The notes under the pieces: generated by a model | What the model was told of the DNA's origin: nothing | The model's database searches: none | The model's input: the letters and a program-made list of their open reading frames with translations, nothing else | Part shown: piece by piece, positions 45,123 to 63,273 of the stretch | Numbering within the stretch: the first letter of the stretch is position 1 | How the letters are laid out: every line of letters begins with the position of its first letter | Assembly (NCBI GenBank): GCA_903825245.1 | Contig: CAIJZX010000016.1 | Location: 2,100-66,099, forward strand | Direction of reading: 5' to 3' | DNA length: 64,000 nucleotides | Origin: Candidatus Kerfeldbacteria bacterium | GTDB taxonomy: Bacteria; Patescibacteriota; Patescibacteriia; SBBC01; CAIJZX01 | Program-made: the position numbers and the translations under genes

Positions 45123-45149
45123 CTTAGGTCGCGCTTGTTATTGAAGTGT

Positions 45150-45190
45150 TGGAGAGGCAATAAAATGTAAGTTTCCTTATTGGGACTGAG
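45150..45190 (+). terminator. Rho-independent terminator (GGGACTGAGTCCC + TTTTTTGG)
   Basis: Hairpin plus T-run after 44571..45122 (approximate coordinates). Confidence 0.5.
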
Positions 45191-45299
45191 TCCCATTAAG
45201 GTTTTTTGGTAAAGAAAATCCCCACGAGCTGATTGCTTGTGGGGCGTGCTTTAGTAACATCTTGTTTGAGAAAGCTTTGTTTGCGAAACGACACTCGTC

Positions 45300-46382: not shown

Positions 46383-46488
46383 GCTGAACCTCCGGTTGGA
46401 GAGAACAGGTGAACGTCTGTTATGAATGAACGTCTTCACAGACCCTAACACTTTATAGTATCAAGTCAATAACTAGAAAATATTCATA

Positions 46489-46517
46489 TTGACAAAACCC
46501 CTCAGCTATTGTATGGT
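46489..46517 (+). promoter_or_regulatory. rnpB promoter (TTGACA-17-TATGGT)
   Basis: Hexamers at 46489-46494 and 46512-46517, ~12 nt upstream of predicted rnpB 5' end. Confidence 0.5.
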
Positions 46518-46530
46518 ATTCGAGCCTCAT

Positions 46531-46984
46531 TGACAGACCACTAGATGACTAGGGTTCATCGCGCAAGCGGTGGATTCAGGAAAGTCCGAACACCGTTGGT
46601 GCGCGCAAGCGCATCATCATGGAGAGTCGCTAACGGCGACCGGGAGTACGATTGGCGTGAATCTGGGTATACCATTTACGTCAGTACGAAGCCCAGGGCA
46701 CCCCGCAAGGGATCGAAGAGTGCAACAGAAACATACCGCCTATGGCGCGTTTACGCGTCAGGTAAGGTTGAAATCGTGAGGTAAGAGCTCACGGCTGGCA
46801 TCGGTGACGATGTCGGCGGGCAAACCCTCTCCGGTGCAAGATCGCATAGGCTCTCAGTCGCAAGACTGTAGGGCGGGTAGATTGCTAGAGCGTTGCAGCA
46901 ATGTAACGTCGAGAGAGATGGTCATCAGATCGGTAGCTACGGCTATCGACGAACAGAATTCGGCTTATCGGTGGTCTGTGCAGA
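46531..46984 (+). ncRNA. rnpB: RNase P RNA (bacterial type A-like)
   Basis: Conserved blocks GGAAAGTCCG…, AGTGCAACAGAAACATACCGCC…GTCAGGTAAGGTTGAAATCGTGAGGTAAGAGCTCAC…, ACAGAATTCGGCTTATCGG; P1 pairing AGACCAC/GTGGTCT; overlapping ORF-track ORFs (46545.., 46893.. N-term) are spurious. Confidence 0.8.
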
Positions 46985-46994
46985 GGCATTTCTC

Positions 46995-48380
46995 ATGAAA
47001 CATCGACTCGATCTTCTTTTTGCGGCGATTCTCGTACCGCTCGACTACGCAGCCCTGCTTACCGCGGGTTGGTTAGCATACACGCTGCGATTCAACCAAA
47101 TCTCGGGATTGTTTCCGATTGTCAGCACGGTGGATTTCGGAACGTACTTTAAGCTGATATTACTCGTAGCGCTTGGCTGGGTGATTGTGTTGGCCATGTC
47201 CGGCGTCTATCGTTTACGCCAACAGTTACCGGCTGAACTCGGCCGCATTTTTCTCGGTGCCTCGACATCGGTATTGTTAGTCATAGTTTTGATTTTCTTC
47301 CAACGCGAATTTTTTGCTTCGCGGTTCATTGTTATTGCCAGCTGGTTGATTGCCGTGTTGGTGCTGTGGCTTGTTCACATGATTGTTCGCGGGATTCAGC
47401 ATTTGCTCTTGCGCCGCGGTATTGGCGTTCAACAAGTCGTTTTGTTCGGCCATGATTCGAACGCTGAAGAACTGGTTCGTGTTTTTCGTCGCCGACCGGG
47501 GATGGGCTATCGCGTGCTACAAGCTTGGGCCGATGTCACGCTCGATACGCTGAGCGCGTTTGAAACCATGTTGCAGAGCGGCGTCGTGGATGAAGTCATC
47601 CAAGCCGATCCGAATATGCCAAAAACGCAGACGCTGCAGTTGATGGAGAAGTGCAACGCCCATAATGTTCGCTTTACCTTCGTGGCCGACGTCTTTGATA
47701 CCCAAGCCGGAAATTTACGGTTCCAAGATTTAGCCGGTATTCCGATTATCGAAATCCAGCGCACCTCGCTCGACGGTTGGGGACGTATCTTAAAACGCGC
47801 TATTGACCTTCTGCTGGGCGCTATAGCCTTAATCATATTTTTCATACCTGGCCTGATCGTGGCGATTATCATCAAAATCGATTCCGCCGGCCCGATATTC
47901 TTCCAAGCCGACCGCGTCGGCCAGGGTCAACGGAAGTTTAAGTTGTGGAAATTCCGTTCGATGATTCGCGATGCACACGGCATGAAGGGCCAACTCGTCG
48001 ATCGCAATGAACGAAGCGACGGTCCGTTGTTTAAAATTGAAAATGATCCGCGCATTACGCGCATCGGCCGCTTTATCCGCAAGACAAGTATTGATGAATT
48101 GCCACAACTCTTCAATGTCTTAAAAGGGGACATGAGCCTCGTCGGGCCGCGGCCGCACGAACCGGAAGAAGTCGCTCGTTACGATGCCCGGCATAAAAAA
48201 CTCTTAACCATTAAACCGGGCATGACCGGCATGGCCCAAGTGTCGGGACGATCGAATTTATCGTTTGAAGAAGAAGTTCGGCTCGATACGTATTACATTG
48301 AACACTGGTCGCTCGGCCTTGACGGCACAATTATGTTGCGCACACCGTTGGCCGTGATACGAACTGATACGGCATCATAA
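46995..48380 (+). CDS. Undecaprenyl-phosphate sugar phosphotransferase (WbaP/exopolysaccharide priming glycosyltransferase)
   Basis: Bacterial sugar transferase domain …KFRSM…DELPQLFNVLKGDMSLVGPRP. Confidence 0.85.
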   Translation: MKHRLDLLFAAILVPLDYAALLTAGWLAYTLRFNQISGLFPIVSTVDFGTYFKLILLVALGWVIVLAMSGVYRLRQQLPAELGRIFLGASTSVLLVIVLIFFQREFFASRFIVIASWLIAVLVLWLVHMIVRGIQHLLLRRGIGVQQVVLFGHDSNAEELVRVFRRRPGMGYRVLQAWADVTLDTLSAFETMLQSGVVDEVIQADPNMPKTQTLQLMEKCNAHNVRFTFVADVFDTQAGNLRFQDLAGIPIIEIQRTSLDGWGRILKRAIDLLLGAIALIIFFIPGLIVAIIIKIDSAGPIFFQADRVGQGQRKFKLWKFRSMIRDAHGMKGQLVDRNERSDGPLFKIENDPRITRIGRFIRKTSIDELPQLFNVLKGDMSLVGPRPHEPEEVARYDARHKKLLTIKPGMTGMAQVSGRSNLSFEEEVRLDTYYIEHWSLGLDGTIMLRTPLAVIRTDTAS

Positions 48381-48385
48381 TTACT

Positions 48386-49519
48386 ATGGCCTTACCTGAA
48401 CATCTCAAAGTTGCCTTGGTTCACGACCATCTCGCGCAAGATGGCGGGGCAGAACGCGTGGTGCGCGTTTTGCAGAACATGTTTCCGAAAGCGCCGCTGT
48501 ATACGCTCGTCTATAATCCGAAACGCGCCCATAAAGATTTTCATGGGACCGATATTCGCACGTCGTTCATCCAGCACTTGCCGTTTTCGAAACGATTGTA
48601 CCAGTGGTATTTGCCGTTTATGCCGACGGCGATTGAACGGCTTGATTTGCGCGGCTACGACATCGTTATTTCCAGCACCGCCAGTTTTGCGAAAGGCGTG
48701 ATTACCGATCCGGACACATTACATCTGTGTTATTTGCATAGTCCGACGCGGTATTTGTGGAACGACACCATATCGTACGTTAATGATTTGCGCTACGCGA
48801 AATTCTTTAAAATGATTGCGCCGCACTATCTCAATCGGATTCGAATGTGGGATCGCCTGGCGGCGGATCGCGTTGATGATTTTATTGTGAACAGTGCGCT
48901 CGTTGAGCAACGGTTAGCAAAATACTACCGACGAAAAGGAACAATTATTCATCCGCCGGTGAACGTCGAACGATTTACGACAGCAACAGAACCGGGGAAA
49001 TATTATTTAACTGGTGGACGACTTGTGCCATACAAGCGTTTCGATTTAGCAATTGAGGCGTTCAATCGTTTGCATTTACCGTTGAAAATCTTCGGTGACG
49101 GTCCGGCGCTTAACGATCTACAGGAAATGGCCGGCGACACGATTGAATTTATCGGCCACATTCCGGACAGTAAGCAAAATGAAGTCTATGGCGGCGCAAT
49201 TGCCTTCATCAATCCACAAGAAGAAGATTTCGGCATTACTATGGTGGAAGCGATGGCTACCGGCCGACCGGTGATTGCCTATGCGAAAGGTGGCGCCTTA
49301 GAAATCATCAAACCGGGCGTGACCGGAAAGTTATTTACCGATCAGGATTGGGAATCGTTGGCCGATGCCGTCATTCGCAGTAAAACCGAACATTTTTCAG
49401 CGACGGATATTCGCACCTGGGCGGAAACATTTAGCGTCGAACATTTTCAACAACAATTTGTACACCACCTTGATGATGCTTGGCAACATCGAGGCGATCA
49501 ACATTTACTAACTATCTAA
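48386..49519 (+). CDS. Glycosyltransferase family 4
   Basis: GT4 C-terminal domain motifs. Confidence 0.75.
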   Translation: MALPEHLKVALVHDHLAQDGGAERVVRVLQNMFPKAPLYTLVYNPKRAHKDFHGTDIRTSFIQHLPFSKRLYQWYLPFMPTAIERLDLRGYDIVISSTASFAKGVITDPDTLHLCYLHSPTRYLWNDTISYVNDLRYAKFFKMIAPHYLNRIRMWDRLAADRVDDFIVNSALVEQRLAKYYRRKGTIIHPPVNVERFTTATEPGKYYLTGGRLVPYKRFDLAIEAFNRLHLPLKIFGDGPALNDLQEMAGDTIEFIGHIPDSKQNEVYGGAIAFINPQEEDFGITMVEAMATGRPVIAYAKGGALEIIKPGVTGKLFTDQDWESLADAVIRSKTEHFSATDIRTWAETFSVEHFQQQFVHHLDDAWQHRGDQHLLTI

Positions 49520-49523
49520 ATCT

Positions 49524-50129
49524 ATGGAACTCCGCGATTATTTGAAAGTCTACTGGTCACAGCGCTGGATGATACTTTTGTTCATTGTTGTCGGCGTGGG
49601 CGCCACTATTCTTGTCGCTAGCACAAGGCCGGTACGAACCGGCGTATCGATTTCCTTCGCCATTAACCGCACCAACCGAGAAGATACGACACAGTATCAG
49701 TACGATGGCTATTATGCATTGCAAGCATCTGATTTATTCTCACAGACTGTTGTCAGTTGGTTCAGCACGCCGTCTGTTCTGCAAGAAGTATATCAGAAAG
49801 CCAACCTTGATCCGGAAATTCAATCCGTTAACAGCTTGCCGTCACGTTTTAGCGTTCGTAAGTACTCAGCGCAAAATATCGTGGTACGTTACACCGAAGA
49901 CAACCAGGATCGCGCCCAAAAAGTAGCGACCAGTCTGGCGACGGTCATGGCGAGTAATGCCGCGGATTTAAATAAAACATCCGACGGAAAGTCGCTCTTC
50001 GATATCGTCGGTGCAACGCCGGTCATTGCTCCAAGCAAACCGAGTTTGCCGCTATACGCTGCAGTAGCCGCTGTCTTGAGCCTCCTGCTCGGTTTATTCA
50101 CGGCTGCGGTTCGCCGGTACATGAAATAA
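49524..50129 (+). CDS. Polysaccharide chain-length determinant (Wzz-like) protein
   Basis: N- and C-terminal TM helices flanking periplasmic domain; Wzz N-terminal motif. Confidence 0.6.
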   Translation: MELRDYLKVYWSQRWMILLFIVVGVGATILVASTRPVRTGVSISFAINRTNREDTTQYQYDGYYALQASDLFSQTVVSWFSTPSVLQEVYQKANLDPEIQSVNSLPSRFSVRKYSAQNIVVRYTEDNQDRAQKVATSLATVMASNAADLNKTSDGKSLFDIVGATPVIAPSKPSLPLYAAVAAVLSLLLGLFTAAVRRYMK

Positions 50130-50132
50130 AGC

Positions 50133-51275
50133 ATGAGAATCGGTATTGACGCCAGATTTTTTGGACCTTTAGAGACCGGCATCGGTCGGTACGTTGAGCG
50201 TCTCGTAACACACCTTTCAGAAATCGATCAGAAAAACGAGTATGTTTTGTTTTTGCGGAAGCGCGGGTATGACTGGTGGCAACCACCCAATGAACGGTGG
50301 AGTAAAGTCTTGGCCGATATCCATTGGTATACGCTCGAAGAACAACGAAGGATGCCCGGTATTTTTCGGCGAGCACATGTCGATGTTCTCCATATTCCGC
50401 ATTTCAATGTGCCGCTGCTGACGCGCAGTCCGTTTATCGTGACGGTTCACGATCTTATACTCGATGAATTTCCCACCGAACGGGCGACGACGCTTGAGCC
50501 GTTGTTATTCGCTCTAAAATTTCGCGCCTACCAAGCGGTTGTTCGCCATGCCGTACGTGATAGCAAAGCGATTATCTCTGTATCGAACTATAGTAAAGAT
50601 CAGTTGATTTCCAGATTCCATATTGCTCCAGAAAAAGTAGAAGTGACCTATGAGTCGGTTGATCCGTTACCAACGTCAGTACCATTTCAAACATTAGCTG
50701 AACACGGCGTCCAGCAACCATACTTACTCCATGTTGGCAATGCTTACCCACACAAAAACCTAGAACGTTTGGTCGAAGCGGTGACGATTGCCAATAAACG
50801 GAATATGACGTTTCAGTTAGTAATGGTTGGAAAAGACGATTACTTCTCCCGTCGTTTACGTGCCAATGTAGAAAAACGCGGTCTGAAAAATATAGTATTC
50901 TATGGATTTGCTTCCGATCAGGAATTAGCTGCACTCTATCAGCACGCCCAAGCATATATTTTTCCATCACTATCGGAAGGATTCGGTTTACCTGGATTAG
51001 AGGCCATGCAGGCAAACACACCGGTTTTCGCCGCCAACGCCTCGTGTCTTCCGGAAGTGTTCGGAGAAGCAGCCTCGTATTTCGACCCGCGCGATACGAC
51101 GTCCATGGCCCAGTCGATAGAATCCGCGCTTCGTGATACACTACTTCGGCAACGACTCGTCGCCGCCGGGCACGAAGTGCTGAATAAATATTCCTGGCGA
51201 CGCATGGCTGAAGAAACCTTAGCCGTGTACGAACGATTCGATCCACATGCCAAAAACACACCAACCACGACCTGA
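50133..51275 (+). CDS. Glycosyltransferase family 4
   Basis: GT4 motifs (…EGFGLPGLEAMQANTPV…). Confidence 0.8.
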   Translation: MRIGIDARFFGPLETGIGRYVERLVTHLSEIDQKNEYVLFLRKRGYDWWQPPNERWSKVLADIHWYTLEEQRRMPGIFRRAHVDVLHIPHFNVPLLTRSPFIVTVHDLILDEFPTERATTLEPLLFALKFRAYQAVVRHAVRDSKAIISVSNYSKDQLISRFHIAPEKVEVTYESVDPLPTSVPFQTLAEHGVQQPYLLHVGNAYPHKNLERLVEAVTIANKRNMTFQLVMVGKDDYFSRRLRANVEKRGLKNIVFYGFASDQELAALYQHAQAYIFPSLSEGFGLPGLEAMQANTPVFAANASCLPEVFGEAASYFDPRDTTSMAQSIESALRDTLLRQRLVAAGHEVLNKYSWRRMAEETLAVYERFDPHAKNTPTTT

Positions 51276-53382
51276 TCCAAACATCCTCGACCTGAGAAAA
51301 CTTGTGGCCGAGCGGCAAGCCGCTTCAGCCGAACCACAACACCGCTGGTCGCACAAACAACCGAAACAGAAGTCCGTTCTCCAGGAATTTCATCGTCCGC
51401 CGACGCCACCGCGCGATTGGACGATGTTTCGTCGTGAACTCTTAAAGTTCGGCGCGGTTTTAGTCGTGGTCGGTTGTATCAGCGGAATTGTGGTGATGGT
51501 GACATCGGTGACTAACGCCAAAACGAAAGTCACGAATGACGCAAAATCTGGCGTCACAGAATTGCAAGCCGGCTTTACTGCCCTCGGTCAATCGCAATCT
51601 GACGAAGCGACGAAACATTTTACAAAGGCCCAATCATTATTCAATCAAGCCAACGCCACCCTGACCGATACGCTTCCGGGGTTTGCTGAGCACTTGCCGG
51701 TCGTCGGCAAGCAAGTCAGCGGCAGCACCACGCTCGTGCACGATGCCGGCGAGATTGCGTCAATCGGCAAACAACTGGCCGAGTTATTACCGACCGATGC
51801 GCTGAAACAACCGGCGGTGACGATTCAATCCAACGGCGTCGTCCAAGGTTCAATCGGCGTTCTGGCATCACTCTCGACGAAGCACGATGAATTGCTGACC
51901 ATCGTCAATCAAGCGAAAAGCGTGCTCAATGATATCCGCACCGTCAGTCCAGATGCTATTCCGTCAGCCTACCGTGAACGATTTATTTCCGCTCAGCGCA
52001 TTCTCAACGGCTTTGTGCCGACATCGGCGTCGCTGGACGACATGACGACATTTTTGCTAGGACTGCTCGCGCCGAAAGAATCGAAAGAATACCTGGTCGT
52101 GTTCCAAAACAATGACGAAATCCGACCGACGGGCGGTTTCTTAGGAACATTTCTTCTCGTCCAATTCGAAGGCGGCACATTTAAAATTCTTGACGCGCCG
52201 GGAAACGGACCATTCGCTTTGTCCGACCTGATCGCGAAGAAAAACCTGCCGCCGCAACCGTTACTGTCCATTGTTCCGTACTGGACATTCCACGATTCGA
52301 ATTGGTTCCTCGATGCACCAACCTCAGCCAAGACGATGATTGATTTCTATAAACAAGATCGCGGCTTCGCGCCGGACGGTGTCCTGTTCTTAACGCCAGG
52401 TATTATGGAAGATATCTTACGCATTACCGGTCCGGTTCGACCGGAGCACTATGCGGTTGATATATCCGCGGAAAACTTTGTGGCGGCGACAGAACAACAG
52501 GTACAATTCGGGTACGATAAGGCGCTGAATAATCCGAAGCAATTCCTCATTGATCTCGTGCCGACGATGATTACGAAACTCTCAACACTTGGTACGCCGG
52601 ACGCGTTGAAAGCGATGGCGATGACACTGAAGCGCTTCAATCAAAACGACATTATGGTCTACAGTTCGGACAAGGATGTCCAAAATGCTGTGGCGACGTT
52701 AGGATGGGATGGTGCACTGAACTCGCTAACGGGCGACGGCCTTGCAGTCGTCGATACAAATCTTGGTGGCGGAAAAACCGATCGTTCGATTACGGAAAAG
52801 GTGACAGTCAATGTCACGTTGCAAAATGGATTACTCCAACACCAAGTTCAAGTCACACGAACGCATCACGGTACAGCAGGGAACATCTTGACCGGTGATA
52901 CAAATCGTGATTTCCTCCGCATCTACACACCGTCGAATGCGCAGTTTACGAGTATTACCGGCGCGACGATTCCGAATGCGTCATGGTGGCAAACGCCGTC
53001 GAGCGTCGCGTCGATGCCGAATATTTTGCAAACAACTGAAGGACAGACGCTCGTCGATCAAGCCAACGGCTACCGCATCACGCACGAAAGCGGTCGAATG
53101 GTATTCGGCGCGTGGAGTCAGATTGCGCCCGGACAATCACAAACCATTACTTTTACCTATACGACACCAGCGCCGACCGGCGACAATACTACCTGGAACT
53201 TCGATTGGCAACATCAACCGGGCGCGGTCCCGGCACGCACCTGGATCGTCAATTTTTCCTTGCCATCAGGTAAAACCATTACGTCAACCAGCTCGACTGC
53301 GGCTATCAGCAATGGAAAAAAGAACGCTTCGTTCACGAGCGATTCAACGATTTCCCGCGAATTCTCGGTGAACTATAAGTAA
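51247..53382 (+). CDS. Large membrane-anchored extracellular protein (DUF4012-like) associated with EPS locus
   Basis: Single N-terminal TM, 650-aa extracytoplasmic region. Confidence 0.5.
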   Translation: MPKTHQPRPDPNILDLRKLVAERQAASAEPQHRWSHKQPKQKSVLQEFHRPPTPPRDWTMFRRELLKFGAVLVVVGCISGIVVMVTSVTNAKTKVTNDAKSGVTELQAGFTALGQSQSDEATKHFTKAQSLFNQANATLTDTLPGFAEHLPVVGKQVSGSTTLVHDAGEIASIGKQLAELLPTDALKQPAVTIQSNGVVQGSIGVLASLSTKHDELLTIVNQAKSVLNDIRTVSPDAIPSAYRERFISAQRILNGFVPTSASLDDMTTFLLGLLAPKESKEYLVVFQNNDEIRPTGGFLGTFLLVQFEGGTFKILDAPGNGPFALSDLIAKKNLPPQPLLSIVPYWTFHDSNWFLDAPTSAKTMIDFYKQDRGFAPDGVLFLTPGIMEDILRITGPVRPEHYAVDISAENFVAATEQQVQFGYDKALNNPKQFLIDLVPTMITKLSTLGTPDALKAMAMTLKRFNQNDIMVYSSDKDVQNAVATLGWDGALNSLTGDGLAVVDTNLGGGKTDRSITEKVTVNVTLQNGLLQHQVQVTRTHHGTAGNILTGDTNRDFLRIYTPSNAQFTSITGATIPNASWWQTPSSVASMPNILQTTEGQTLVDQANGYRITHESGRMVFGAWSQIAPGQSQTITFTYTTPAPTGDNTTWNFDWQHQPGAVPARTWIVNFSLPSGKTITSTSSTAAISNGKKNASFTSDSTISREFSVNYK

Positions 53383-53689
53383 GACAACGGGATAAGCAAA
53401 ACGACGACACCTACCTCCCCACGGTTTAGACAATATTTGTGGCGTTCTTTGTATTCAACAAGGTATGTATGCAGAGGAATCCTGTCTGCAACCCCTCCTT
53501 CCAGCGCACTGGAAGGAGGGGTGTTGACGACAAAGCTGTGCATGACGTTCTTGATGACAGCAATTTTACGTCCAAAAATGATGAAAACGACGGGGAGGTA
53601 GGCGCTTTCAAAGTGCTATTTATCCACACCTTTTTACCCTAATCTTAGGGAAAATCCAACCTTGCGGTCGGAGGCGGTATTGACATTTT

Positions 53690-53718
53690 CGGAGGCGGGG
53701 AGTATCATGCTTAGTCAA
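53690..53718 (+). promoter_or_regulatory. Strong sigma70-like promoter TTGACA-17-TATCAT
   Basis: Hexamers at 53690-53695 and 53713-53718. Confidence 0.55.
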
Positions 53719-53724
53719 CTTAAA

Positions 53725-54249
53725 AAAGCACCTTCCAATCTCGGTCCGAATTGCCAGGAGTTGTGTCGATATAAGTCGCTACAACCCCTGGCGATTCATT
53801 GCAGTCGGTTGGCCACCGAGCGTGTCTCGCACTAGGGGAAGTTACAAGTAACTTCAGCGAAGCGGTAGTACGCAACACGACGCGGTGGAACAAACAGACT
53901 GTAGCACTCGGAGCACTCGCTGGTGGAACACCCGCAGCACACTGGTTGCACCGAAGCACTCCGGAAGTACCGATTCACCGCGCGGTGGTCGGAGAAGTCC
54001 GATACGTAAACCTGACCGCAGTACCTAGCAGTACGTGGCAGAACGGTGGGGGAGTTGAAAGACGTTTCATCTCTCCCACCCCATTTCCCGAATACATCTC
54101 AAGTGAGGTGTCGTCAGGAAAGGATGCACCATACAATTCATGTCAGAACAATCGTTGAGGAGCGAAAGTTCGACATAACAAACTGTTCATCCATAAAGGG
54201 TGAGGTCTGTTGTCGACGCGCGTCCACAACAAGCCTCACCTTTTTTGTT
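53725..54249 (+). ncRNA. Candidate ~530-nt noncoding RNA (promoter-to-terminator transcript without credible ORF) in GC-rich island
   Basis: Bounded by promoter above and a strong intrinsic terminator; internal ORFs (53799.., 54046..) lack SD and look compositional; internal short repeats (GGTGGAACA, AGCACTCGG/AGCACTCCGG). Confidence 0.4.
54199..54249 (+). terminator. Rho-independent terminator (GGTGAGGTCTGTTGT…ACAACAAGCCTCACC + TTTTTTGTTT)
   Basis: Long GC stem followed by T-run. Confidence 0.75.
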
Positions 54250-54393
54250 TGGCCCTCCCCTTGATAAGGGGAGGTGAAGGAGGGGTGAGGAGGACAGGCA
54301 CCGCGGCCAGCCGCCGTGTGTTGTTGGTTGCGGAACCTGTCCTGACGAAACGAAGGTTGATCTCTAACGCGCTAAAAGCGCACGGAGAATACC

Positions 54394-54747
54394 ATGTTCA
54401 ATACGTTCGTCGTTGTGGCACTGATCTGCCTCATCATCTGGAACCTGATCCAGCGCAACCAGATCAAGCATCAGGAAATGGTCATCGAACGCATCAAGCA
54501 CAACTCGGCGGCGTTCGAGATTCGAACGATGGCCATCGACTACTACCGCGAACACGGCACTTGGCCGACCATCAAGGAACTCCGAGTGGATCGTGACATG
54601 GACAGTCTCGAGTGTACGCTCTGGGCAGACTGGCAGATCAAGGCCAGGTTCGAGAAGAACTATACCAAGCAGTGGCTTCTCGAGATCTGGATCCCAGGTG
54701 CGAATGTCTGCCGCATCTTTCACACCGGTATTCGCACTGCCGCGTGA
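54394..54747 (+). CDS. Hypothetical membrane-anchored protein with pseudopilin-like motif (…AIDYYREHGTWPTIKEL…)
   Basis: SD GGAGA; N-terminal hydrophobic helix; weak similarity to GspG/type IV pilin core. Confidence 0.45.
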   Translation: MFNTFVVVALICLIIWNLIQRNQIKHQEMVIERIKHNSAAFEIRTMAIDYYREHGTWPTIKELRVDRDMDSLECTLWADWQIKARFEKNYTKQWLLEIWIPGANVCRIFHTGIRTAA

Positions 54748-54891
54748 GCAGCACCTTCTACACCGCAACACAAGTTACGGTGAAGGCTATGACTACGGTC
54801 TGGCCTCTCACTCGAACGCTTCAGCTTTAGTTGGAGAGTTCAAGTGAGGATAGTCAGTAGCCAGCACCGTCACATTCGAAAGGAGTCAGTC

Positions 54892-55221
54892 ATGTCCTCT
54901 GCTGTGAAGCAGGAGAAGGACTACACCACGTGCCTTCGGCTGCACGTGTACGAGGTTCCGGCCGAGAGCGAGATCGCTAAGATCGCTTCTCGGACCATCA
55001 TCCACGCCGTTCCCGAGGACAAGTGCCTGGCCTGCATCAACGAACGACTGCACGACCTCCGGCACGACGCTGAGTTGGACGATCTGTGCCCAATCGATCC
55101 TGATCAGCCGAACGGCTGGGCACTCGACGCGGACGATGCCGAGAAGCAGTACGAGGACGTCCGACGTCTGTACGTGACTGAAGTGGACCACGAGTACCGA
55201 CTCATGCCGGATCTCAGCTAG
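54892..55221 (+). CDS. Hypothetical acidic Cys-containing protein
   Basis: SD AAGGAG; internal Met start. Confidence 0.45.
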   Translation: MSSAVKQEKDYTTCLRLHVYEVPAESEIAKIASRTIIHAVPEDKCLACINERLHDLRHDAELDDLCPIDPDQPNGWALDADDAEKQYEDVRRLYVTEVDHEYRLMPDLS

Positions 55222-55622
55222 AGCAACAAGAACAAGGCCGTGAGCGGATATCGTTCACACGAGTAAGGAGCCTATATACAATCCTTACTCAGCTGTCTTC
55301 CGATGTGTATCGGAACTGATGAGCTCGAAAGAGCGAAACAGCATAGAAGTACATTACATATATTCGAAGAACGCACAGGGAGGGGAGAGCACTCGTTGTC
55401 GGACGGCCACAAGCATGGACGACACGAGCCGCGGTCAAGCAGTAGTCAAGGAGGTTTCGACTTCCGACACCATTGCAAGACAGCATATGACGATAGGGTG
55501 AGCTTGTCTCACCACAACTACCGTTCGCTTGCCTCCCGATGTGTTCTTCGAACATTCCGGTCACCACGACCGAACCCGACCGTGCACGGGTTGACAATGC
55601 GCGGACTGCCAAGGAGGCGCAG

Positions 55623-55787
55623 ATGTGCATGTCGCATGAGCTGGCCAGCCGCATTGCGGAACTTCATCTTCATGGTCGGGCTGACCATCTTCCTCAAGAA
55701 ACGGTCAGCCACGCACTGGAACTGGCGTACGGTGGCAACGCACCGAAGCCGCTCTCCTGCGAGATCGACAACGCCCAGGCCGCGTAG
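55623..55787 (+). CDS. Hypothetical small protein (55 aa)
   Basis: SD AAGGAGG-6-ATG. Confidence 0.35.
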   Translation: MCMSHELASRIAELHLHGRADHLPQETVSHALELAYGGNAPKPLSCEIDNAQAA

Positions 55788-55972
55788 CGGCACGTAACAA
55801 AGTACCTCGGGGTCAACGTTTTCCATACGTTGACTCCGAGCCCTTACTCGAGCATTCCTATCAATTGGATGACGGAAGTCCCAAGCGACGAAATGCTCAA
55901 GTAAGACCAACGACAAACATCAATGCTTGACATATCAAGTACCACTCAACCATCACCACGGAGGGCAAAATC

Positions 55973-56137
55973 ATGTTCCCGTATGCCTTGGCTACCGTGC
56001 TGTTGGTGCTGACGATTTCGGTCGGCATCGCACTGATCAAGAGGCAGAAGTCGCTGTCGGGTCCTTCGAACGAGAACGCACTCGCGTCGAAGCATCCGGA
56101 GTTCAAGAACTTCAACCGCCGCAGTCGCATTCGCTAA
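55973..56137 (+). CDS. Unlisted small membrane protein (54 aa, MFPYALATVLLVLTISVGIALIKRQK…)
   Basis: Not in ORF track (<60 aa); SD GGAGGG-7-ATG; strongly GC3-biased codons; single TM. Confidence 0.4.
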   Translation: MFPYALATVLLVLTISVGIALIKRQKSLSGPSNENALASKHPEFKNFNRRSRIR

Positions 56138-56183
56138 CGATCGTCGGTCACATCCAACAACACTTCCAACCGGAGGTACTGTC

Positions 56184-56612
56184 ATGAAGCAGGCTCTGCT
56201 GGATCAGATCAAGGCGATGGAGCAGTACGTCACCAACGTGTTGGGTCCGAAGTTCCTTCTGGACAGCGCGGCTCACGAGGCCGAGCTGAACGAGTTCCTC
56301 GGTACGGTCAATTTCCAGCGCGGTGGTCGGCTCGGTCTGCTGTACGACGAGCGTGATCTCGAGCTGTGGACCGAACGGCTGCTGGAGAAGCCGATGACCA
56401 CGAACGTCACGATCGGTACGTCCGACATCAAGTTCCTCGGCACCGAGCACACGGCCAAGCGGAGCCGCACCTGCAAGGGCAAGCGGTTCAAGAACAAGCC
56501 GCGTGAGCAGCACCGTCCGAAGCCCCAGCCGGCGAAGGACAAGAACGAGTTCAAGAAGGAGATGGAGAAGCAGCAGCGGACCAAGAAGCGCGGCCACCAG
56601 CAGGCCGCCTAG
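56184..56612 (+). CDS. Hypothetical protein with highly basic C-terminal tail
   Basis: SD GGAGG. Confidence 0.5.
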   Translation: MKQALLDQIKAMEQYVTNVLGPKFLLDSAAHEAELNEFLGTVNFQRGGRLGLLYDERDLELWTERLLEKPMTTNVTIGTSDIKFLGTEHTAKRSRTCKGKRFKNKPREQHRPKPQPAKDKNEFKKEMEKQQRTKKRGHQQAA

Positions 56613-56885
56613 TTTCCAAGCGCCTATCCTTCAACGCCACCCAATTCGTGGGACGAAGAACCGCGGATGTGGGAACAAGAAAGGTGGTGAGTACGATTCG
56701 ATTATGTACCTTCTGAAGCAAAAAAATCAGAACAGCGCGTGACAACGTTGCTGTTCGGGAGAGAAGCTCGATCTTCTCTCCTCCTGTCCGAGTTGACGAC
56801 AACGTCGTCGATTCAGACAGGGGTACCTCAGTATTCCGCAGTCGCTCTTGAAAACTTGTTACTCACTTCCATACCGGAGGTTACC

Positions 56886-57266
56886 ATGCTGCGCACGCTG
56901 TTGCTAGCAACTTGCTTGGTGGTTCTCGGCATGATGTCAACGTCGTGTATCACCGAACCCCAGAATCCGAACCTCGCATGTCTGGTCGGTGTCCACAACC
57001 TCACGAACCAGCCGGCGGCGAAAGTCGTCATTGACGGCGCAGTGGTGATGCGGAACCTTCGTCCCTACGAAGAATGGGTGCTTTCCGGAACCTACATGAC
57101 CGGCTCGTACCATACCTTCGAGGTCTTCACCACGGACACGATCACATCGTCGATTCGATGTAACTTCAGTGTTCCGTGGCATGTCCGCTATACGTGTGCA
57201 AGCACGGCGGTTGCGGTGTATATCGCCGTCAATCCGACCAACGGCGACTACCGCATAAGTGAGTAA
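56886..57266 (+). CDS. Hypothetical secreted/lipoprotein-like protein
   Basis: SD GGAGG; signal peptide with Cys. Confidence 0.5.
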   Translation: MLRTLLLATCLVVLGMMSTSCITEPQNPNLACLVGVHNLTNQPAAKVVIDGAVVMRNLRPYEEWVLSGTYMTGSYHTFEVFTTDTITSSIRCNFSVPWHVRYTCASTAVAVYIAVNPTNGDYRISE

Positions 57267-57275
57267 GCCCAAAGG

Positions 57276-57355
57276 GGAACGCGGACATGGAATGCTCATG
57301 TTGCGTTCCCTGCTTCACTTGAGTTATGCATCACGTATGAATGACTCAAGCGAAG
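57276..57355. repeat. Two-hairpin intergenic element copy 1 (GGAACGC-loop-GCGTTCC; CTTCACTTGAGT-loop-ACTCAAGCGAAG)
   Basis: Paralogous to 58053-58129 with compensatory stem changes. Confidence 0.55.
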
Positions 57356-57435
57356 ATGCACCTTACATATTGCTCTGAAATTTACAACGTTTTTAACGTT
57401 GTTGTTGCAATTCACCCCAGCAAACGGAGAAGCCG

Positions 57436-58038
57436 ATGAAAGGCATGATGCTGATGATGCTGTGTGTCCTGATGTTCGCCTCGGCGGCAACCGCGCAGAC
57501 GACGGAAACCATCCACCCGACGACCAGTATTGTCTCGGTCTGGAACGAGTACCAGACGACTGATGGTGGCTTGGACAATTTCAATGTCTGGGCCAACGTT
57601 TGGCCGAGCGATGGGAAGTTCGGGTTCTACCTGTACACGCAGGGTGCTCAGCCTTCGTTCACGCAGACGTACGGCGGTCCGGCTGTTCGCATGTTCGACG
57701 GTCAGTTCGAACTCGGCGCTGGACTCGGTGTCGAGAACGTCGACGGCAACGTCGGTCTGCGGCGATCTGTGTACGGCATCGTCACCCACCAGAAGTTCTC
57801 GAGTGCCAACTGGTACGAGAGCTCCAGGAACAGTGGGTGGTGGTTCCTGACCCAGGACATGTACTCGGTCACGCCGACGCTCGAAGCCGGTTACCGTCTG
57901 CAGCGTTTCCTCGGTGGCGGTCCCATGGTCCGCTATACCGCAACGTTCAAGAACTGGGCGTTCCAGCCTTACGGCGCGGCGCTATACGACGGCGATCGTT
58001 TGAACCCGATCCTCGGGTTCTCGATGACGCACAAGTAG
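57436..58038 (+). CDS. Hypothetical secreted beta-rich protein (outer-membrane-protein-like)
   Basis: Signal peptide MKGMMLMMLCVLMFASAATAQ; alternating aromatic/Gly beta pattern. Confidence 0.5.
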   Translation: MKGMMLMMLCVLMFASAATAQTTETIHPTTSIVSVWNEYQTTDGGLDNFNVWANVWPSDGKFGFYLYTQGAQPSFTQTYGGPAVRMFDGQFELGAGLGVENVDGNVGLRRSVYGIVTHQKFSSANWYESSRNSGWWFLTQDMYSVTPTLEAGYRLQRFLGGGPMVRYTATFKNWAFQPYGAALYDGDRLNPILGFSMTHK

Positions 58039-58052
58039 TTCAGAGCAATACA

Positions 58053-58129
58053 GGGCAGGGCATCATGAAGCTATGATGTTCCTGCCCGCTTCACTTGAGT
58101 GCTGAAAAAAATCAACATTCAAGCGAAGC
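58053..58129. repeat. Two-hairpin intergenic element copy 2 (GGGCAGG-loop-CCTGCCC; CTTCACTTGAGT-loop-ATTCAAGCGAAG)
   Basis: See copy 1. Confidence 0.55.
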
Positions 58130-58205
58130 TCAGTCGAAAGATTGCGCTTCCGATCCTTACAACTTGCTACAAGTTACACAATACCTCAACCACGGAAGGG
58201 AAGCT

Positions 58206-58859
58206 ATGCGCTTCGTTTCTGATGCAGACCGTAAGGAGCTTGAGGCCTTGATGTTGGCCGACCTCTATTACATCCAGGCACAGGAAGACAACCAGCGCTG
58301 GTATGAAGCACTGGGGAGCACTCAGTCCGAGCAGGACATGCTGGGCACTGTCAATCGCGTCACCAACATGATCGGCAGCGAAACCGCTGACGAGCTCGAC
58401 GATCTGTACGAGTTGAGCAGGATGGTCGAGAGCAACGACGACACCATCGTTTACATCGACGAACGCCACCAGCTCGGCTTCGCTCTGTACTATCGTCGGG
58501 TCAAGTTCATCCACGGCCTGCCGGTCATGACGAAGCGCCAGCGCCATCCGTATGACGGTTCGTGCCGCTACGCCAAGCTCCATCACGACAACAAGATGTA
58601 TGATCGCGAGCGTAAGCTCGAGCATCTCCGCCGCTGGCAGCCCGAAGATCTCGACGAGGTAAATGACCACGACGAGGATTCGGACATTCTTTCGGCAGGC
58701 GAGCTCGTCGCCGAAGACCTGCGCGAACGTGAACGTGATTGGGCGATCGACGAACTCATCGGCAGTGGCGCGGAGTATTACGACGATGAATTCGAAGATG
58801 ACGAGACCGGCCCATACGTCGGTTACGGCAAAAATCGTTCGTACCACACCAACCCGTAA
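58206..58859 (+). CDS. Hypothetical acidic protein
   Basis: Internal Met with SD-like GGAAGGGAAG. Confidence 0.45.
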   Translation: MRFVSDADRKELEALMLADLYYIQAQEDNQRWYEALGSTQSEQDMLGTVNRVTNMIGSETADELDDLYELSRMVESNDDTIVYIDERHQLGFALYYRRVKFIHGLPVMTKRQRHPYDGSCRYAKLHHDNKMYDRERKLEHLRRWQPEDLDEVNDHDEDSDILSAGELVAEDLRERERDWAIDELIGSGAEYYDDEFEDDETGPYVGYGKNRSYHTNP

Positions 58860-58873
58860 GAAAAGGGGATCAC

Positions 58874-59440
58874 ATGAATCGAATCCTGTTGATCGCGGCG
58901 ATGTTCTGCATCCTGCTCGCTACGGCGGTGCAGGCTGCTCCGGACACGCTGAAGGTGCACCTGAACGGTGGCCAGCCGATGCTGGTCACGACTGAGGATA
59001 TGCCGGCGTCGACGTACCGTTTGACCGACCAGCGAGTCGATCAGATCGTCGATCACTCGGTCAAGACAGCGCTCACTGCTTCTCGACCGCGCATCGTCTA
59101 CCGCTATCGGTATATCGCGACCGAACCGATGGTCATTCACGACACGACCGTCGTGGCCGCGCCGTTTACCTGGTGGCAGTCGAACCATATGGGGTCCATT
59201 CCGGACTGGTTCTGGCCGCTGTTTACCGTCGTGGCGCTCGCGGTGCTTCTCGGTATCGCGCTGGGCGGCGGTCTCCGCGATCGTCCCGGACGTGACGGTC
59301 GGGATGGACTTCCGGGTCGTGACGGAAGGGACGCGATGTCGGAAGCCACTGATTCGCCGATGTTGCGACTCCAGTATCTGCCTGAGGGCACGGAGATCAC
59401 GATCAAGCGCGATCGTCCTCCTGTTGTTCCGAAGACGTAG
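58874..59440 (+). CDS. Hypothetical secreted protein with TM helix and short collagen-like GRDGRDGLPGRDGRD tract
   Basis: Signal peptide, SD AAAAGGGGA. Confidence 0.5.
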   Translation: MNRILLIAAMFCILLATAVQAAPDTLKVHLNGGQPMLVTTEDMPASTYRLTDQRVDQIVDHSVKTALTASRPRIVYRYRYIATEPMVIHDTTVVAAPFTWWQSNHMGSIPDWFWPLFTVVALAVLLGIALGGGLRDRPGRDGRDGLPGRDGRDAMSEATDSPMLRLQYLPEGTEITIKRDRPPVVPKT

Positions 59441-59729
59441 TTGTAGCAAGCGGTTCCGGTGGTGCATTGAGCCTTACGCTCGGTGCACCACCATCTTTCT
59501 CGAAACTTTCAGCAAACTGGAAGTTTCAAGCAAGGTAGCGCTGACTCATTGACATCGCAATATACTTGGCTAACACTATACGTGTTGGCGGCAACTCTGG
59601 CTTCACTAGTGACGTTCGTACACAGTAACGATGAATGTCCTGCCTCTGGCAGGCTCCTCCATTCGTTGATGCGGCGTGCGAACCCCTCCTGGTGGAGCCG
59701 GAGTTGTTTTGTATTTGGTTTACTTGCAA

Positions 59730-61373
59730 ATGAATCAAAAAAATGTCATACTGAAAAAACGTATGTGGCAAAAACTGTGGTACAAATTGCAGACAACCAT
59801 CTTCGGCGGCGCCATCATCGTTAGCTCAAGTTGGATTATCAGTAAAGTGCTTGGATTCGGGCGTGAATGGCTGATTGCTCGAAATTTCGGTACAGTCGGC
59901 GCGGATCCTATCTACGCCGCTTTTACTATTCCAGATTTCATCTATGGGACGCTCATTTTGGGTTCGCTCCTAACAGCGTTTATTCCCGTTTTCATCGCGT
60001 ATCGCAATAAAAATGAAGATGAGGCTTGGCGGATCGCGCGGTCACTCCTGAATATTATCGTTATTGTCTTCATTGTCTTCGGTTTCATTTTACTAGCTGC
60101 TGCTGGTCCAATTATCCACATTCTCGTTGGCGACAAAATGTCTGTGGCTGCGCAACACGAAAGCGCTATGCTGATGCGGATTATGTCGATGAATATGCTA
60201 CTCTTCGCGGTCAGTAATATATTCGCTGGAGTTTTGCAAGCCTCAAAACAATTTTTGGCTGTTTCCGTGGCACCGATTATGAACAATCTCGGCGCTATTT
60301 TTGGTCTGCTCGTTCTAACACCGCACATCGGTGTGGCCGGTGTGGCCTGGGGTGCTGTCGTCGGCGCCTTACTCCATTGCGGCATTCAAGCCTATGCTGC
60401 CGTTAAAGTCGGTTGGCGATTCGGACCAACCGCCGGATGGCATCATCCGGGAGTAAAACAAATCTGGAAACTTTTATTACCGCGCACGATTGGACAATCA
60501 GTGACACAAATTGATCAATTGGTGAATGTTCCGATTGCTACGCGCATCGGCCCGTCAAACTTAACGATTTTCCGTCGGGCAAATATTCTGCAAGATTTTC
60601 CGAGTAGCGTGGTCGGCGTGTCACTAGCCACCGTTGCATTTCCTACCTTCGTGGAATTACTCACGGCCGGAAAGAAAGATGAGTTTATTAAAGCTTTTTC
60701 GCAAATTGTTCGCCAGATTTTATTCATTATTATTCCAATTACGGTATTATTTATTCAACTCCGCGCACAATACGTCCGGATCGCCTTTGGTACCGGATCG
60801 GTGAGCTGGTCGGACACGATTGCCACCGCCCAAACGCTCGGTTTCTTTGCTATTTCCTTTTTTGCTCAGTCGTTAATTCCCGTTTTGGCTCGATCCTTCT
60901 ATGCCATGCAAGATTCGGTTACACCGGTGCGCATTACCATGGTCGCCGTCGGTCTCGATATTGTTGGATCAATCGTCCTCGGTACGACCATGGGCATTAC
61001 CGGTTTAGCGTTATCCTTTACCATTTCCAGTGTTATTAATGCCACCTGGCTGTTCGTCGCATTACATCGGCGCGTTGGACATCTTGACGAAGATAAAATA
61101 ATCTTAGCTGTAACGAAAATCTTAGCTGTAACGTTAATCATGGCGGTCGCCGTTCAGGTCGCGAAACCTGTGACGGTCAGCTTTGGTTTTGATCTGGACC
61201 ACAGTATCGGCGTCTTTATGCAAGCCTTCGTCGGAACATTAGTCGGAACGATTGTTTTTACCACCTTCGCCGGTCTACTCAAACTTGAAGAGGCGGCGCT
61301 CATCACTCGCGCCATTCAACGTTTTTTCCGCCTCGGACGAAATGGTAACGACTCATCGGATAACGCCTCATGA
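59730..61373 (+). CDS. murJ: Lipid II flippase MurJ (MviN)
   Basis: 14-TM MurJ architecture and conserved N-terminal region; start ambiguous (59730 or 59763). Confidence 0.85.
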   Translation: MNQKNVILKKRMWQKLWYKLQTTIFGGAIIVSSSWIISKVLGFGREWLIARNFGTVGADPIYAAFTIPDFIYGTLILGSLLTAFIPVFIAYRNKNEDEAWRIARSLLNIIVIVFIVFGFILLAAAGPIIHILVGDKMSVAAQHESAMLMRIMSMNMLLFAVSNIFAGVLQASKQFLAVSVAPIMNNLGAIFGLLVLTPHIGVAGVAWGAVVGALLHCGIQAYAAVKVGWRFGPTAGWHHPGVKQIWKLLLPRTIGQSVTQIDQLVNVPIATRIGPSNLTIFRRANILQDFPSSVVGVSLATVAFPTFVELLTAGKKDEFIKAFSQIVRQILFIIIPITVLFIQLRAQYVRIAFGTGSVSWSDTIATAQTLGFFAISFFAQSLIPVLARSFYAMQDSVTPVRITMVAVGLDIVGSIVLGTTMGITGLALSFTISSVINATWLFVALHRRVGHLDEDKIILAVTKILAVTLIMAVAVQVAKPVTVSFGFDLDHSIGVFMQAFVGTLVGTIVFTTFAGLLKLEEAALITRAIQRFFRLGRNGNDSSDNAS

Positions 61374-63151
61374 AACAACTCGATCAGATACGAAACTTTT
61401 GTATCATCGCGCATATCGACCACGGAAAATCAACGTTGGCCGATCGTTTTCTTGAGGTTACCGGCACTGTCGCCAAGCGGGAAATGCAAGAACAGCTGCT
61501 CGATTCGATGGATATTGAGCGCGAACGCGGTATTACCGTCAAACTCGCACCAGTTCGGATGCAATGGCAGGGGATTGAATTGAACCTGATTGATACACCG
61601 GGCCACGTTGATTTCCAGTATGAAGTTTCTCGTTCGTTGGCGGCAGTTGAAGGAGCAATTCTTGTGGTCGACGCAACGCAAGGCATTCAAGCACAAACAC
61701 TAGCCAATCTTGACTTAGCAAACGCACAGGGACTGACTATTATTCCCGTCGTTAATAAAATTGATTTGCCAAATGCGGAAACCGAACAAGTGGTGGACGA
61801 TTTAGTTAAACTCCTCGGTGTTGAAGCCTCAACGATTATCCGCGCTTCGGCGAAAGCGGGTATTGGTGTGACTGATATCCTCGATCACGTCGTACGTGAC
61901 GTTCCGCCACCCATCGGAAACGTTGAGGCACCACTGCGGGCACTGATTTTCGATTCGACTTTTGATGCTTTTCAGGGCGTCATCGCTTTTGTTCGCGTGA
62001 TTGATGGGCAGGTTAAGGCAAATAGCCATATTCACTTTATCGCCACACAGACTTCCTCCTTAGTTCTTGATGTTGGCACGTTTACTCCGAAACGAAAAGT
62101 TAGTCCCGTTTTGCAGGCTGGAGAAATCGGCTACATCGTTACCGGTCTGAAAGACGTGGCTCACGCTCGTGTCGGTGATACCGTAACCATTGATCCACCA
62201 ACCGTTACGGCGCTGGAAGGATATCGTCAACTGCCGCCCATGGTTTACGCCGGGTTATTTACTCATGCCGGCGACGAATATCCAAAACTCCGCAAAGCCA
62301 TGGAAAAATTGCGTCTTAACGATGCCTCGTTGACGTTTGAACCTGAGCAATCACCGGCGCTCGGTTATGGGTTTCGTTGTGGTTTTTTAGGGCTACTTCA
62401 CCTCGACATTGTCCGGGAACGATTAGAACGCGAGTATGGCATGCACGTCCTTGTCACCGTGCCGTCAGTTGGCTACCATGTTTACCAAAAAAATAAACCG
62501 GATCCAATAATTGTCCGCAGTCCACTCCAATTACCAGATATGTCGACAGTTGATCGAATTGAGGAGCCGATGATGAAACTCAATGTCGTAACACCAGCCA
62601 CCACGATCGGCGCCGTGATGCAAGCCACCCAAGAACGACGCGGCACATTTCTCAATCTTGATTACATTGACGCCGATCGTGCGTTACTCCATTTCACCAT
62701 CCCACTCGCTGCGATCTTGATTGATTATTATGATATACTAAAAAGCGTCACGGCAGGTTACGCTTCACTAAATTACGAACTGAATGGATACGCCGTCGCT
62801 GATGTTATACGCATGGACATCGTTGTAGCTGGAGATGTTGTTGAGCCGCTGGCGACGATTATCTACCGTGATGCGGCACAGCGTGCCGGTCGAAAAGTTG
62901 TAAGCTCGCTCAAAGAGATTTTACCCCGCCAACAGTTTGAAGTAAAAATTCAAGCCGCTATCGGTGGTAAAATTATCGCCTCGGAACATTTGCCCGCCAT
63001 GCGAAAGGACGTTACGGCTGGATTGTACGGCGGTGATGTGACGCGAAAACGAAAAGTATTAGAAAAACAGAAAAAAGGAAAGGCGCGAATGAAAACCATG
63101 GGCAAGGTTGATATCCCGCCTTCAGCCTACCTGGCCGTTCTGAAACACTAA
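61370..63151 (+). CDS. lepA: Elongation factor 4 (LepA)
   Basis: G-domain AHIDHGKSTL…DTPGHVDF…NKIDL; LepA C-terminal domain. Confidence 0.95.
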   Translation: MKQLDQIRNFCIIAHIDHGKSTLADRFLEVTGTVAKREMQEQLLDSMDIERERGITVKLAPVRMQWQGIELNLIDTPGHVDFQYEVSRSLAAVEGAILVVDATQGIQAQTLANLDLANAQGLTIIPVVNKIDLPNAETEQVVDDLVKLLGVEASTIIRASAKAGIGVTDILDHVVRDVPPPIGNVEAPLRALIFDSTFDAFQGVIAFVRVIDGQVKANSHIHFIATQTSSLVLDVGTFTPKRKVSPVLQAGEIGYIVTGLKDVAHARVGDTVTIDPPTVTALEGYRQLPPMVYAGLFTHAGDEYPKLRKAMEKLRLNDASLTFEPEQSPALGYGFRCGFLGLLHLDIVRERLEREYGMHVLVTVPSVGYHVYQKNKPDPIIVRSPLQLPDMSTVDRIEEPMMKLNVVTPATTIGAVMQATQERRGTFLNLDYIDADRALLHFTIPLAAILIDYYDILKSVTAGYASLNYELNGYAVADVIRMDIVVAGDVVEPLATIIYRDAAQRAGRKVVSSLKEILPRQQFEVKIQAAIGGKIIASEHLPAMRKDVTAGLYGGDVTRKRKVLEKQKKGKARMKTMGKVDIPPSAYLAVLKH

Positions 63152-63273
63152 CGAAAGAGTGGCAGAAGCGTAAAACCAAGCATGCTCGCGATCATGAAGA
63201 ACGAAGCAATAATGATGATCCGACGCATGGTACGTTGTTTCATAGGAAACGGAGTTCAATAAATCATTGTACA

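Follow-up and report, generated by a model that had tools for sequence, protein, structure and literature searches.

A segment of about 530 bases in the 64-kb window analysed here (the whole stretch of 64,000 nucleotides, from a Candidatus Kerfeldbacteria contig), lying directly downstream of a DUF4012 gene, is, as judged from its sequence, a real non-coding RNA unit of the + strand, with its own predicted promoter and intrinsic terminator. It is the long variant of an RNA of about 150-190 bases, and this RNA family is previously undescribed and restricted, among the loci examined, to Candidatus Kerfeldbacteria, of the Candidate Phyla Radiation (CPR)/Patescibacteria. To our knowledge, RNA-based regulation is almost uncharacterised in these bacteria with tiny genomes. 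Our best explanation, which we hold tentatively, is that the unit is a structured leader or attenuator that would also yield a terminated small RNA. Its features are the following (window coordinates, strand):

53680-53708, +: sigma-70-type promoter TTGACA-17-TATCAT, matching 11 of 12 consensus positions, with equivalents in 12/12 loci
53709-54125, +: accessory long 5' domain of about 400 nt with several helices, in long variants only
53748-53797, +: helix H1 (helix 2), 22 pairs, GAAUUGCCAGG...CCUGGCGAUUC, 95.5% paired in the three long members
54045-54080, +: helix GGUGGGGGAG...CUCCCACC (helix 12), with 5 of 11 pairs changed on both sides in the three long members
54084-54121, +: helix UUCCCGAAUACAUCUC-NNNN-GAGGUGUCGUCAGGAA (helix 13), 16 pairs, 93.8% paired, 2 compensatory
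54126-54137, +: conserved single-stranded block GCACCAUACAAU, with G9, C10 and TACAA invariant in 12 sequences
54142-54174, +: hairpin HP2, GUC-A-GAAC-AA-UCG [UUGAGGAG] CGA-AA-GUUC-GAC, with its loop at 54155-54162
54192-54247, +: intrinsic terminator, a long hairpin with U6 (inverted repeat, and helix 16 of the long-form consensus)

The promoter is the top match in a consensus scan of 20 kb of the window (44000-63900), a search that may overlook weak promoters. The runner-up sites (10/12 positions) include 46489-46517 and 55254-55282, and because these precede the RNase P RNA gene and a hammerhead-like ribozyme, respectively, the consensus appears to be meaningful in the Kerfeldbacteria host. 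Transcription would start near 53714. At the other end, the inverted repeat of the terminator (54192-54219 / 54220-54247) has 28-nt arms that are 82% complementary, with zero spacer and a TTTTTT end. From the -10 hexamer to the U tract the unit measures 538 nt, and its minimum free energy (MFE) is -214.7 kcal/mol, compared with -159.9 +/- 6.7 in dinucleotide shuffles (z = -8.2, + strand).

The DUF4012 protein (711 aa for the open reading frame (ORF) in the window, 692 aa for the database version with a shorter start) has about 35 relatives at 38-60% identity, whose named sources are Candidatus Kerfeldbacteria. We compared the DNA around eleven of these relatives and at one locus recovered via a DNA pattern. 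The resulting family set comprises 12 sequences, namely the window and the 11 loci from Kerfeldbacteria metagenome-assembled genomes that reach far enough past DUF4012. All 11 carry the unit at the equivalent place, and their DUF4012 proteins are 42-60% identical to that of the window; the sequence of a further locus, L013, ends before the RNA. In 12/12 loci, a TTGAC[AT]-17-TAT..T promoter is the first feature after DUF4012 and is followed by a homologous untranslated unit closed by an intrinsic terminator, which is strong and has a U6-U7 tract in all members. The synteny is strict: the unit immediately follows the DUF4012 gene, part of a glycosyltransferase operon, and is itself followed by a hypervariable island of small ORFs, then MurJ and LepA. 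Lengths of 143-253 nt are found in nine members, while the window (538 nt), L012 (534 nt) and L006 (449 nt) carry long forms.

Searches outside this set added little. The metagenome pattern scan gave a single true extra member, L012. The core pattern is also present at L011 11498-11533 (-), as TACAAT...CCG-TTGAGGAG-CGG, yet without a recognisable promoter, terminator or Kerfeldbacteria synteny, and we treated it as a chance match, about one of which would be expected by a rough estimate. The matches in a viral-contig scan were nine copies of an unrelated helix-turn-helix protein coding sequence and were also considered as chance, and blastn against a phage collection returned zero matches. Against Rfam 15, positions 53300-54600 retrieved nothing beyond microRNA/small RNA noise (16-21 bits, E 0.09-3.4), and at gathering thresholds the window and eight of the 11 homologous loci retrieved RNase P only. 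ARAGORN recognised neither a transfer-messenger RNA nor a tRNA. Titles and abstracts in the literature held nothing on Kerfeldbacteria non-coding RNAs and nothing linking DUF4012 to an RNA motif.

It is very improbable that the segment represents a protein-coding gene or the template of an antisense (minus-strand) transcript. The longest ORF in the unit (53799-54158) would encode 119 aa from a TTG start, and the minus strand of the long forms contains open frames of 80-146 aa. However, the 119-aa ORF has zero Pfam matches and is unconserved in the two homologous long elements, the three long forms share no reading frame, their tblastx similarity being six-frame, frame-switching and stop-rich, and the short forms are too small for an ORF. 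The minus strand of the window copy folds similarly (z = -7.4), with a terminator-like site at 53672-53655, but the promoter and terminator lie on the + strand in 12/12 loci, the + strand has the better z-score in 10/11 members, and several invariant G.U pairs of the long forms would be A.C mismatches on the minus strand.

An earlier note on this DNA, made from the letters alone, had pointed to a near-consensus promoter, a strong intrinsic terminator with a U6 tract, the lack of any credible ORF and many local helices, all of which we recover. Of the checks that it proposed, the Rfam comparison assigned the window unit to no Rfam 15 family, and both HP2 and the long-domain helices show compensatory changes among homologs. 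A conserved reading frame, which would have spoken for a gene, was not seen. Its remarks on composition did not hold: the supposedly GC-rich segment has 52% G+C vs about 50% in the surroundings, and its internal short repeats are two-copy matches of 10-13 nt, as expected by chance.

The conserved core

All members have in common the GCACCAUACAAU block, a covarying hairpin with a UU-GAGG-AR loop (HP2) and the terminator. In the MFE folds of the window and L012, the block stays single-stranded; together with CGUUGAGGA(G/A), it is invariant or nearly so in the 12 sequences. Within HP2, CGTTGAGGA is invariant (12/12), and the top of the hairpin, CGUUGAGGAG, consists of C-G, G-C, U.G and U-A pairs closing a GAGG tetraloop (in the window, the closing pairs are U-A and U.G). 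The stem changes around this loop: the third pair from it is UA, CG, AU or GU across members, and the outer helix is GAAC/GUUC in most of them, and AACG/CGUU in L008, while in L010, L014 and L015 a longer inner stem, GCCG/CGGC, takes its place. In alignment A3, 83% of the HP2 cells are paired; the covariation score is 0.22, whereas shuffles give 0.09 (0/500) and slid partners at most 0.07.

Most short forms possess an additional 5' module, in which a stem CGCUYG/CRAGCG surrounds a second hairpin with a UU-GAGG-AR top, and their two hairpins lie about 40 nt apart. The P1/P2 structure of this module has moderate support (69% of cells paired vs at most 42% when slid; covariation 0.235 vs 0.146, 1/500). 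An alternative 5' stem, GUCAC/GUGAC, is unconserved in the short forms, and CGCUYG/CRAGCG was preferred. This first GAGG hairpin is missing in the window and L006.

Loops that stay invariant while their stems covary, as for a recognition element, and that occur twice at this short distance in most short forms, would also fit a protein-binding decoy or scaffold like CsrB/RsmZ, whose GAGG(A) loops would imitate Shine-Dalgarno/GGA sequences and thereby sequester a dimeric RNA-binding protein or the 30S subunit, with more sites available in the long form. We consider this unlikely. The window copy has 11 GGA vs 9.5 expected, mostly paired in the MFE fold with one mostly unpaired, and the short forms have 2-5; two members do without the first hairpin, as noted above; and tblastn with three CsrA sequences was negative in the window and the loci examined, which cover a small part of each genome. 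On these GGA counts, and with no CsrA match in the DNA examined, a CsrB-like sponge was set aside.

The terminator architecture varies among members. Nevertheless, UCCUCAA, a perfect 7-nt complement of the HP2 loop, is found in 8/12 terminators at 24-27 nt from the 3' end (per-sequence p 0.003-0.03) and persists despite the different architecture in L010, L014 and L015. In the window, two segments of the 3' arm, UCCACAA and GCCUCAC, are complementary to the UGAGG loop. Those terminators that were inspected by eye retain a C.C mismatch in the stem, facing UCCUCAA.

Two other roles for core sequences were tried and rejected. A leader peptide would start from GAGGA followed by GUG, giving a short ORF in L005 and L004, but its frame and start are unconserved in L010 and L015. 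An internal promoter at TACAAT, or an antisense promoter at ATTGTATGGTG, would be without a -35 hexamer at usable spacing.

The accessory 5' domain

A homologous 5' domain of about 350-400 nt is present in only 3/12 members, namely the window, L006 (7125-7450) and L012 (a minus-strand copy), and absent in the nine short or intermediate ones. Its ends are well conserved and its middle is variable in length. In the three-sequence consensus fold, which includes the terminator and HP2 and comprises 110 pairs, 92% of the cells are paired and 17 pairs are changed on both sides, whereas shuffles give 6.4 (0/500) and slid partners at most 3; these figures are no more than an indication, since the fold comes from the very sequences on which it is scored. 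Helix H1 contains 2 compensatory and 3 invariant G.U pairs, and the terminator helix (helix 16) is 96.8% paired with 2 compensatory pairs. The helix at 54084-54121 is the most sequence-conserved part of the domain and contains the motif CTCAAGTGAGG. The L012 unit folds with z = -9.2.

In the tree of DUF4012 proteins, the window is nearest to L001, L006 to L005, and L012 to L015 and L004, all of which are short forms. Since the long members are scattered among short ones in this way, the domain seems to have been lost or gained repeatedly and to be dispensable for the core function; it therefore appears accessory. The large structured non-coding RNA proposed in the earlier note is thus non-coding, structured and conserved, but its large part belongs to a minority of the family, and the likeness that the note saw to OLE, GOLLD, ROOL and HEARO was not supported, with zero Rfam matches even at E <= 10 and a family-wide core of only about 150-190 nt. 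Likewise, the unit does head an island of small ORFs, in the window and in its relatives, and borders hypervariable DNA, but its conserved chromosomal position is not that of a mobile element.

This patchy distribution could also mean that the 5' domain is a selfish or mobile insertion, intron-like or repeat, into a small RNA gene, with no function in the host RNA. The L012 insert still has the whole short-form 5' module at its 3' end and, by reading, is flanked by a GCTAGA direct repeat. In contrast, neither a group I/II intron nor a ribozyme or other Rfam family matches the domain (window unit at E <= 10, L006 at gathering thresholds), no further copy is present in the 64-kb window or any locus examined, and no terminal inverted repeats were seen. 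Moreover, the ends of the insert are its best conserved parts and its helices keep compensatory changes, arguing for structural selection. We regard such an insertion as quite unlikely.

Leader, small RNA and the downstream island

The case for a leader comes from what follows the terminator. According to the consensus scan, a promoter, an untranslated structured RNA, an intrinsic terminator and promoter-less co-directional genes succeed one another in 12/12 loci. Between the terminator and the first ORF, no sigma-70-like site (>= 9/12) was found on the + strand in 12/12 loci, on which we base the leader reading; no promoter-like site was found within 1.5 kb downstream in 8/12 loci, nor on the + strand of the window from 53708 to 55254. 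The first ORF lies 70-300 nt past the terminator in most loci, is always co-directional and preceded by a Shine-Dalgarno sequence, and all the island genes are co-directional with the RNA. The lack of other promoters before the downstream ORFs thus points to a cis-acting leader no less than to a free-standing large non-coding RNA. The features flanking the unit are the following:

53620-53628, +: DnaA-box-like perfect 9-mer TTATCCACA, an exact match, 52 nt upstream of the -35 hexamer
53631-53654, no strand: palindrome TTTTTACCCTAA-TC-TTAGGGAAAA (ACCCTAA-TC-TTAGGG), a candidate operator read from the sequence
54291-54343, +: post-terminator hairpin (CURCGGYCAG...GUGUUGYUGRYUGYAG), inverted repeat I3, in the read-through leader
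54394-54747, +: first island ORF, 117 aa with an N-terminal hydrophobic segment, GGAG 8 nt before its ATG, no Pfam family

The mechanism that we propose is as follows. The unit would be transcribed on the + strand from its own strong promoter, predicted in 12 loci and probably regulated, and transcription would end at the intrinsic terminator, which is backed by covariation. The core would consist of GCACCAUACAAU, the UU-GAGG-AR hairpin and the terminator, with the second same-loop hairpin added in most short forms and the multi-helix domain of about 400 nt added 5' of it in the window. For the most part, transcripts would end at 54247 and build up as a small RNA, and read-through would be the only transcription into the ORFs from 54394 onwards; the 54394-54747 ORF is thus probably expressed in this way. 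The CCUCA of the terminator 3' arm could pair alternatively with the terminator 5' arm, leaving the C.C mismatch, or with the UGAGG loop(s), which makes a plausible switch. Such a switch would be set by a factor, most likely an RNA-binding protein reading the paired GAGG loops, and the long 5' domain might, speculatively, serve as an optional extra sensor or stability module. A counterpart of the G.U-rich post-terminator hairpin separates the terminator from the first ORF in L001, L004-L007, L010, L012, L014 and L015.

Several points weigh against this explanation. The first downstream ORFs differ among loci and mostly encode short hydrophobic proteins, so that a classical riboswitch tied to one gene function is unlikely, and neither one conserved downstream gene function nor a known effector emerged among the loci compared. 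For an antiterminator, the usual position of UCCUCAA, in the 3' arm of the terminator, is kinetically unfavourable. In the window and L012, only 5 bases complementary to the HP2 loop remain, and L008 has no such complement; the loop itself is invariant, hence covariation is uninformative for the loop-terminator pairing. The family-wide conserved structure seems to be small, because RNAalifold on an automatic alignment of the nine short forms yields the HP2 stem as the sole consensus structure. The sequences are few and phylogenetically related, and the shuffle statistics overstate the significance. Finally, termination, read-through and RNA abundance are inferred here from sequence.

The main rival, possible but less likely, is a free-standing, trans-acting small RNA that would pair with mRNAs via GCACCAUACAAU and/or the anti-Shine-Dalgarno-like CCUCA, read-through being incidental. 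Indeed, every member has its own strong promoter and a U6-U7 terminator, the invariant unpaired block of 11-12 nt resembles a seed region, and the RNA is conserved whereas the downstream ORFs are not. Nevertheless, sites complementary to the block are unenriched in the 64-kb window (7 with <= 2 mismatches vs 5.4 expected), and its near matches look like promoter -10 regions, in a search of 64 kb and short loci that covers a small part of the genomes. In addition, with downstream ORFs devoid of their own promoter, the unit is not purely independent of them.

Returning to the leader, the sequences upstream of its promoter suggest regulation, since a DnaA-box-like TTATCCACA and a palindrome lie there. 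A TTATCCACA-like box precedes the orthologous promoter in 9/12 loci; the other exact copies in the window are at 8752, 8940 and 60112. Most other loci have (TTTGGCTAAT)ATTAGCCAAAA at the position of the palindrome, and in the window the two half-sites changed jointly, GCC to GGG and GGC to CCC. Therefore, the RNA promoter is probably under regulation; DnaA may control it through this box, and the palindrome is a candidate operator. Between the DUF4012 stop and the DnaA box of the window, a perfect 14-bp hairpin (53491-53522) sits inside a 30-nt inverted repeat (53410-53439 / 53573-53602); this spacer (53410-53602) is much shorter in most other loci and looks like a window-specific insertion.

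In the window, the gene order is RNase P RNA, sugar transferase, GT4, a 201-aa protein, GT4, DUF4012, the element, small ORFs, MurJ, LepA and a bPH protein. Family search did not assign a function to the 201-aa protein between the two GT4 genes, and the small ORFs between the element and MurJ contain no recognised Pfam families. This DUF4012-MurJ island (54394-59500 in the window, with counterparts in L001-L015) spans about 2.5-6.3 kb, and its gene content varies, mostly short hydrophobic proteins without Pfam families. The first ORFs of L006, L008 and L010 include 26-28-aa peptides ending in TPE or TPSE.

Other RNAs occur in and near the island. A second undescribed structured RNA of 170-280 nt, GGGAGGGGA...CAAGCAUGG...GGUUUCGACU...GCUUGCCUCCCGAU, is located at 55372-55552 (+) of the window and in 10 other Kerfeldbacteria loci (two copies in L009), and an 11th, in L015, is cut by the contig end. 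When 11 copies are folded with RNAalifold, the consensus contains 47 pairs, of which 28 show compensatory double changes, and the covariation term amounts to -6.42. With zero Rfam matches, this second RNA is better supported as a structured RNA than the main unit. Upstream of it in the window (55254-55344, +), a promoter-like TTCACA-17-TACAAT precedes a type III hammerhead-like ribozyme (55290-55344), which scores 36 bits with RF00008 (E = 4e-5), below the gathering threshold of 48.5; the ribozyme, with the core CUGAUGAG...CGAAAC, is immediately upstream of the second RNA, and the same core precedes that RNA in L010, L012 and L014. Long inter-ORF hairpins of the form CCUCACUCGA...//...GAGUGCUCAAGUGAGGA, with variable inserts, stand before many small island ORFs, as at window 54800-54850 (+), and others are found at window 57313 and 58089 (-) and in L001 (9558-9627, 10040-10130, 10860-10900 and 11400-11440). 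The motif CTCAAGTGAGG recurs in these hairpins, with 6 copies in L001 vs 0.27 expected. Further upstream in the window, the class A RNase P RNA at 46533-46983 (+; 191.8 bits) contains an 87-nt insertion and measures 451 nt, compared with 367 positions in the model, and has the promoter TTGACA-17-TATGGT (46489-46517) 16 nt upstream; its orthologs in related loci range from 334 to 633 nt.

A broader proposal, which we regard as rather doubtful, would have the unit gate the hypervariable island as the first element of a Kerfeldbacteria-specific RNA control, combining a UGAGG/CCUCA switch with an optional sensor of about 400 nt, and with every small membrane-protein gene of the island equipped with a structured RNA of its own (hammerhead-like, CUCAAGUGAGG hairpins and the second RNA of about 170-280 nt). 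If true, this would be a new class of regulatory RNA, in an uncultured CPR lineage, whose modular sensor is gained and lost.

Significance and relation to known systems

The locus provides a well-delimited RNA gene that is absent from Rfam, has a covarying core and is conserved across a candidate phylum-level lineage, and the family can be used directly to build covariance models for metagenome and metatranscriptome mining. Its long domain offers a natural presence/absence experiment for a structured domain of 400 nt. The locus also marks an island with at least one more, better-supported structured RNA and hammerhead-like ribozymes.

Among known systems, the unit resembles terminator attenuators and riboswitch leaders in its succession of promoter, structured RNA, Rho-independent terminator and promoter-less co-directional ORFs, and in the upstream complement to a terminator arm. 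It differs from them in matching no Rfam riboswitch or leader and in lacking a conserved regulated gene. Moreover, a typical ligand aptamer would need a larger conserved core and a less variable 5' domain (here 0 to about 400 nt), and the segment complementary to the loop usually belongs to the 3' arm of the terminator. The two small same-tetraloop hairpins with a variable linker upstream of genes recall guanidine-II (mini-ykkC) riboswitches; however, the loops are GAGG, not ACGR, and cannot pair mutually, the first hairpin is missing in two long forms, and there is no Rfam match. With CsrB/RsmZ, the unit shares hairpins with an invariant, purine-rich, GGA-containing loop (UUGAGGAR) and a terminator end, but it has only one or two such loops, GGA unenriched, no CsrA in the DNA examined and no similarity in sequence or to the covariance models.

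The long form is similar to OLE, GOLLD, ROOL and HEARO in its size (about 500 nt), many helices, lack of an ORF and adjacent variable DNA, and differs from them in the absence of a covariance match at E <= 10, a core of about 150-190 nt, the optional nature of its large domain and a locus that is not mobile. The enlarged RNase P RNAs of the same organisms, with their expansion segments, likewise combine a conserved core with lineage-specific helical insertions; in the unit described here, in contrast, the insertion is 2-3x the core, and fairly close relatives can differ in having it or not. Therefore, the general kind of element, a promoter-to-terminator structured leader or small RNA, is ordinary, whereas the optional 400-nt domain and the RNA-rich island next to it are unusual.

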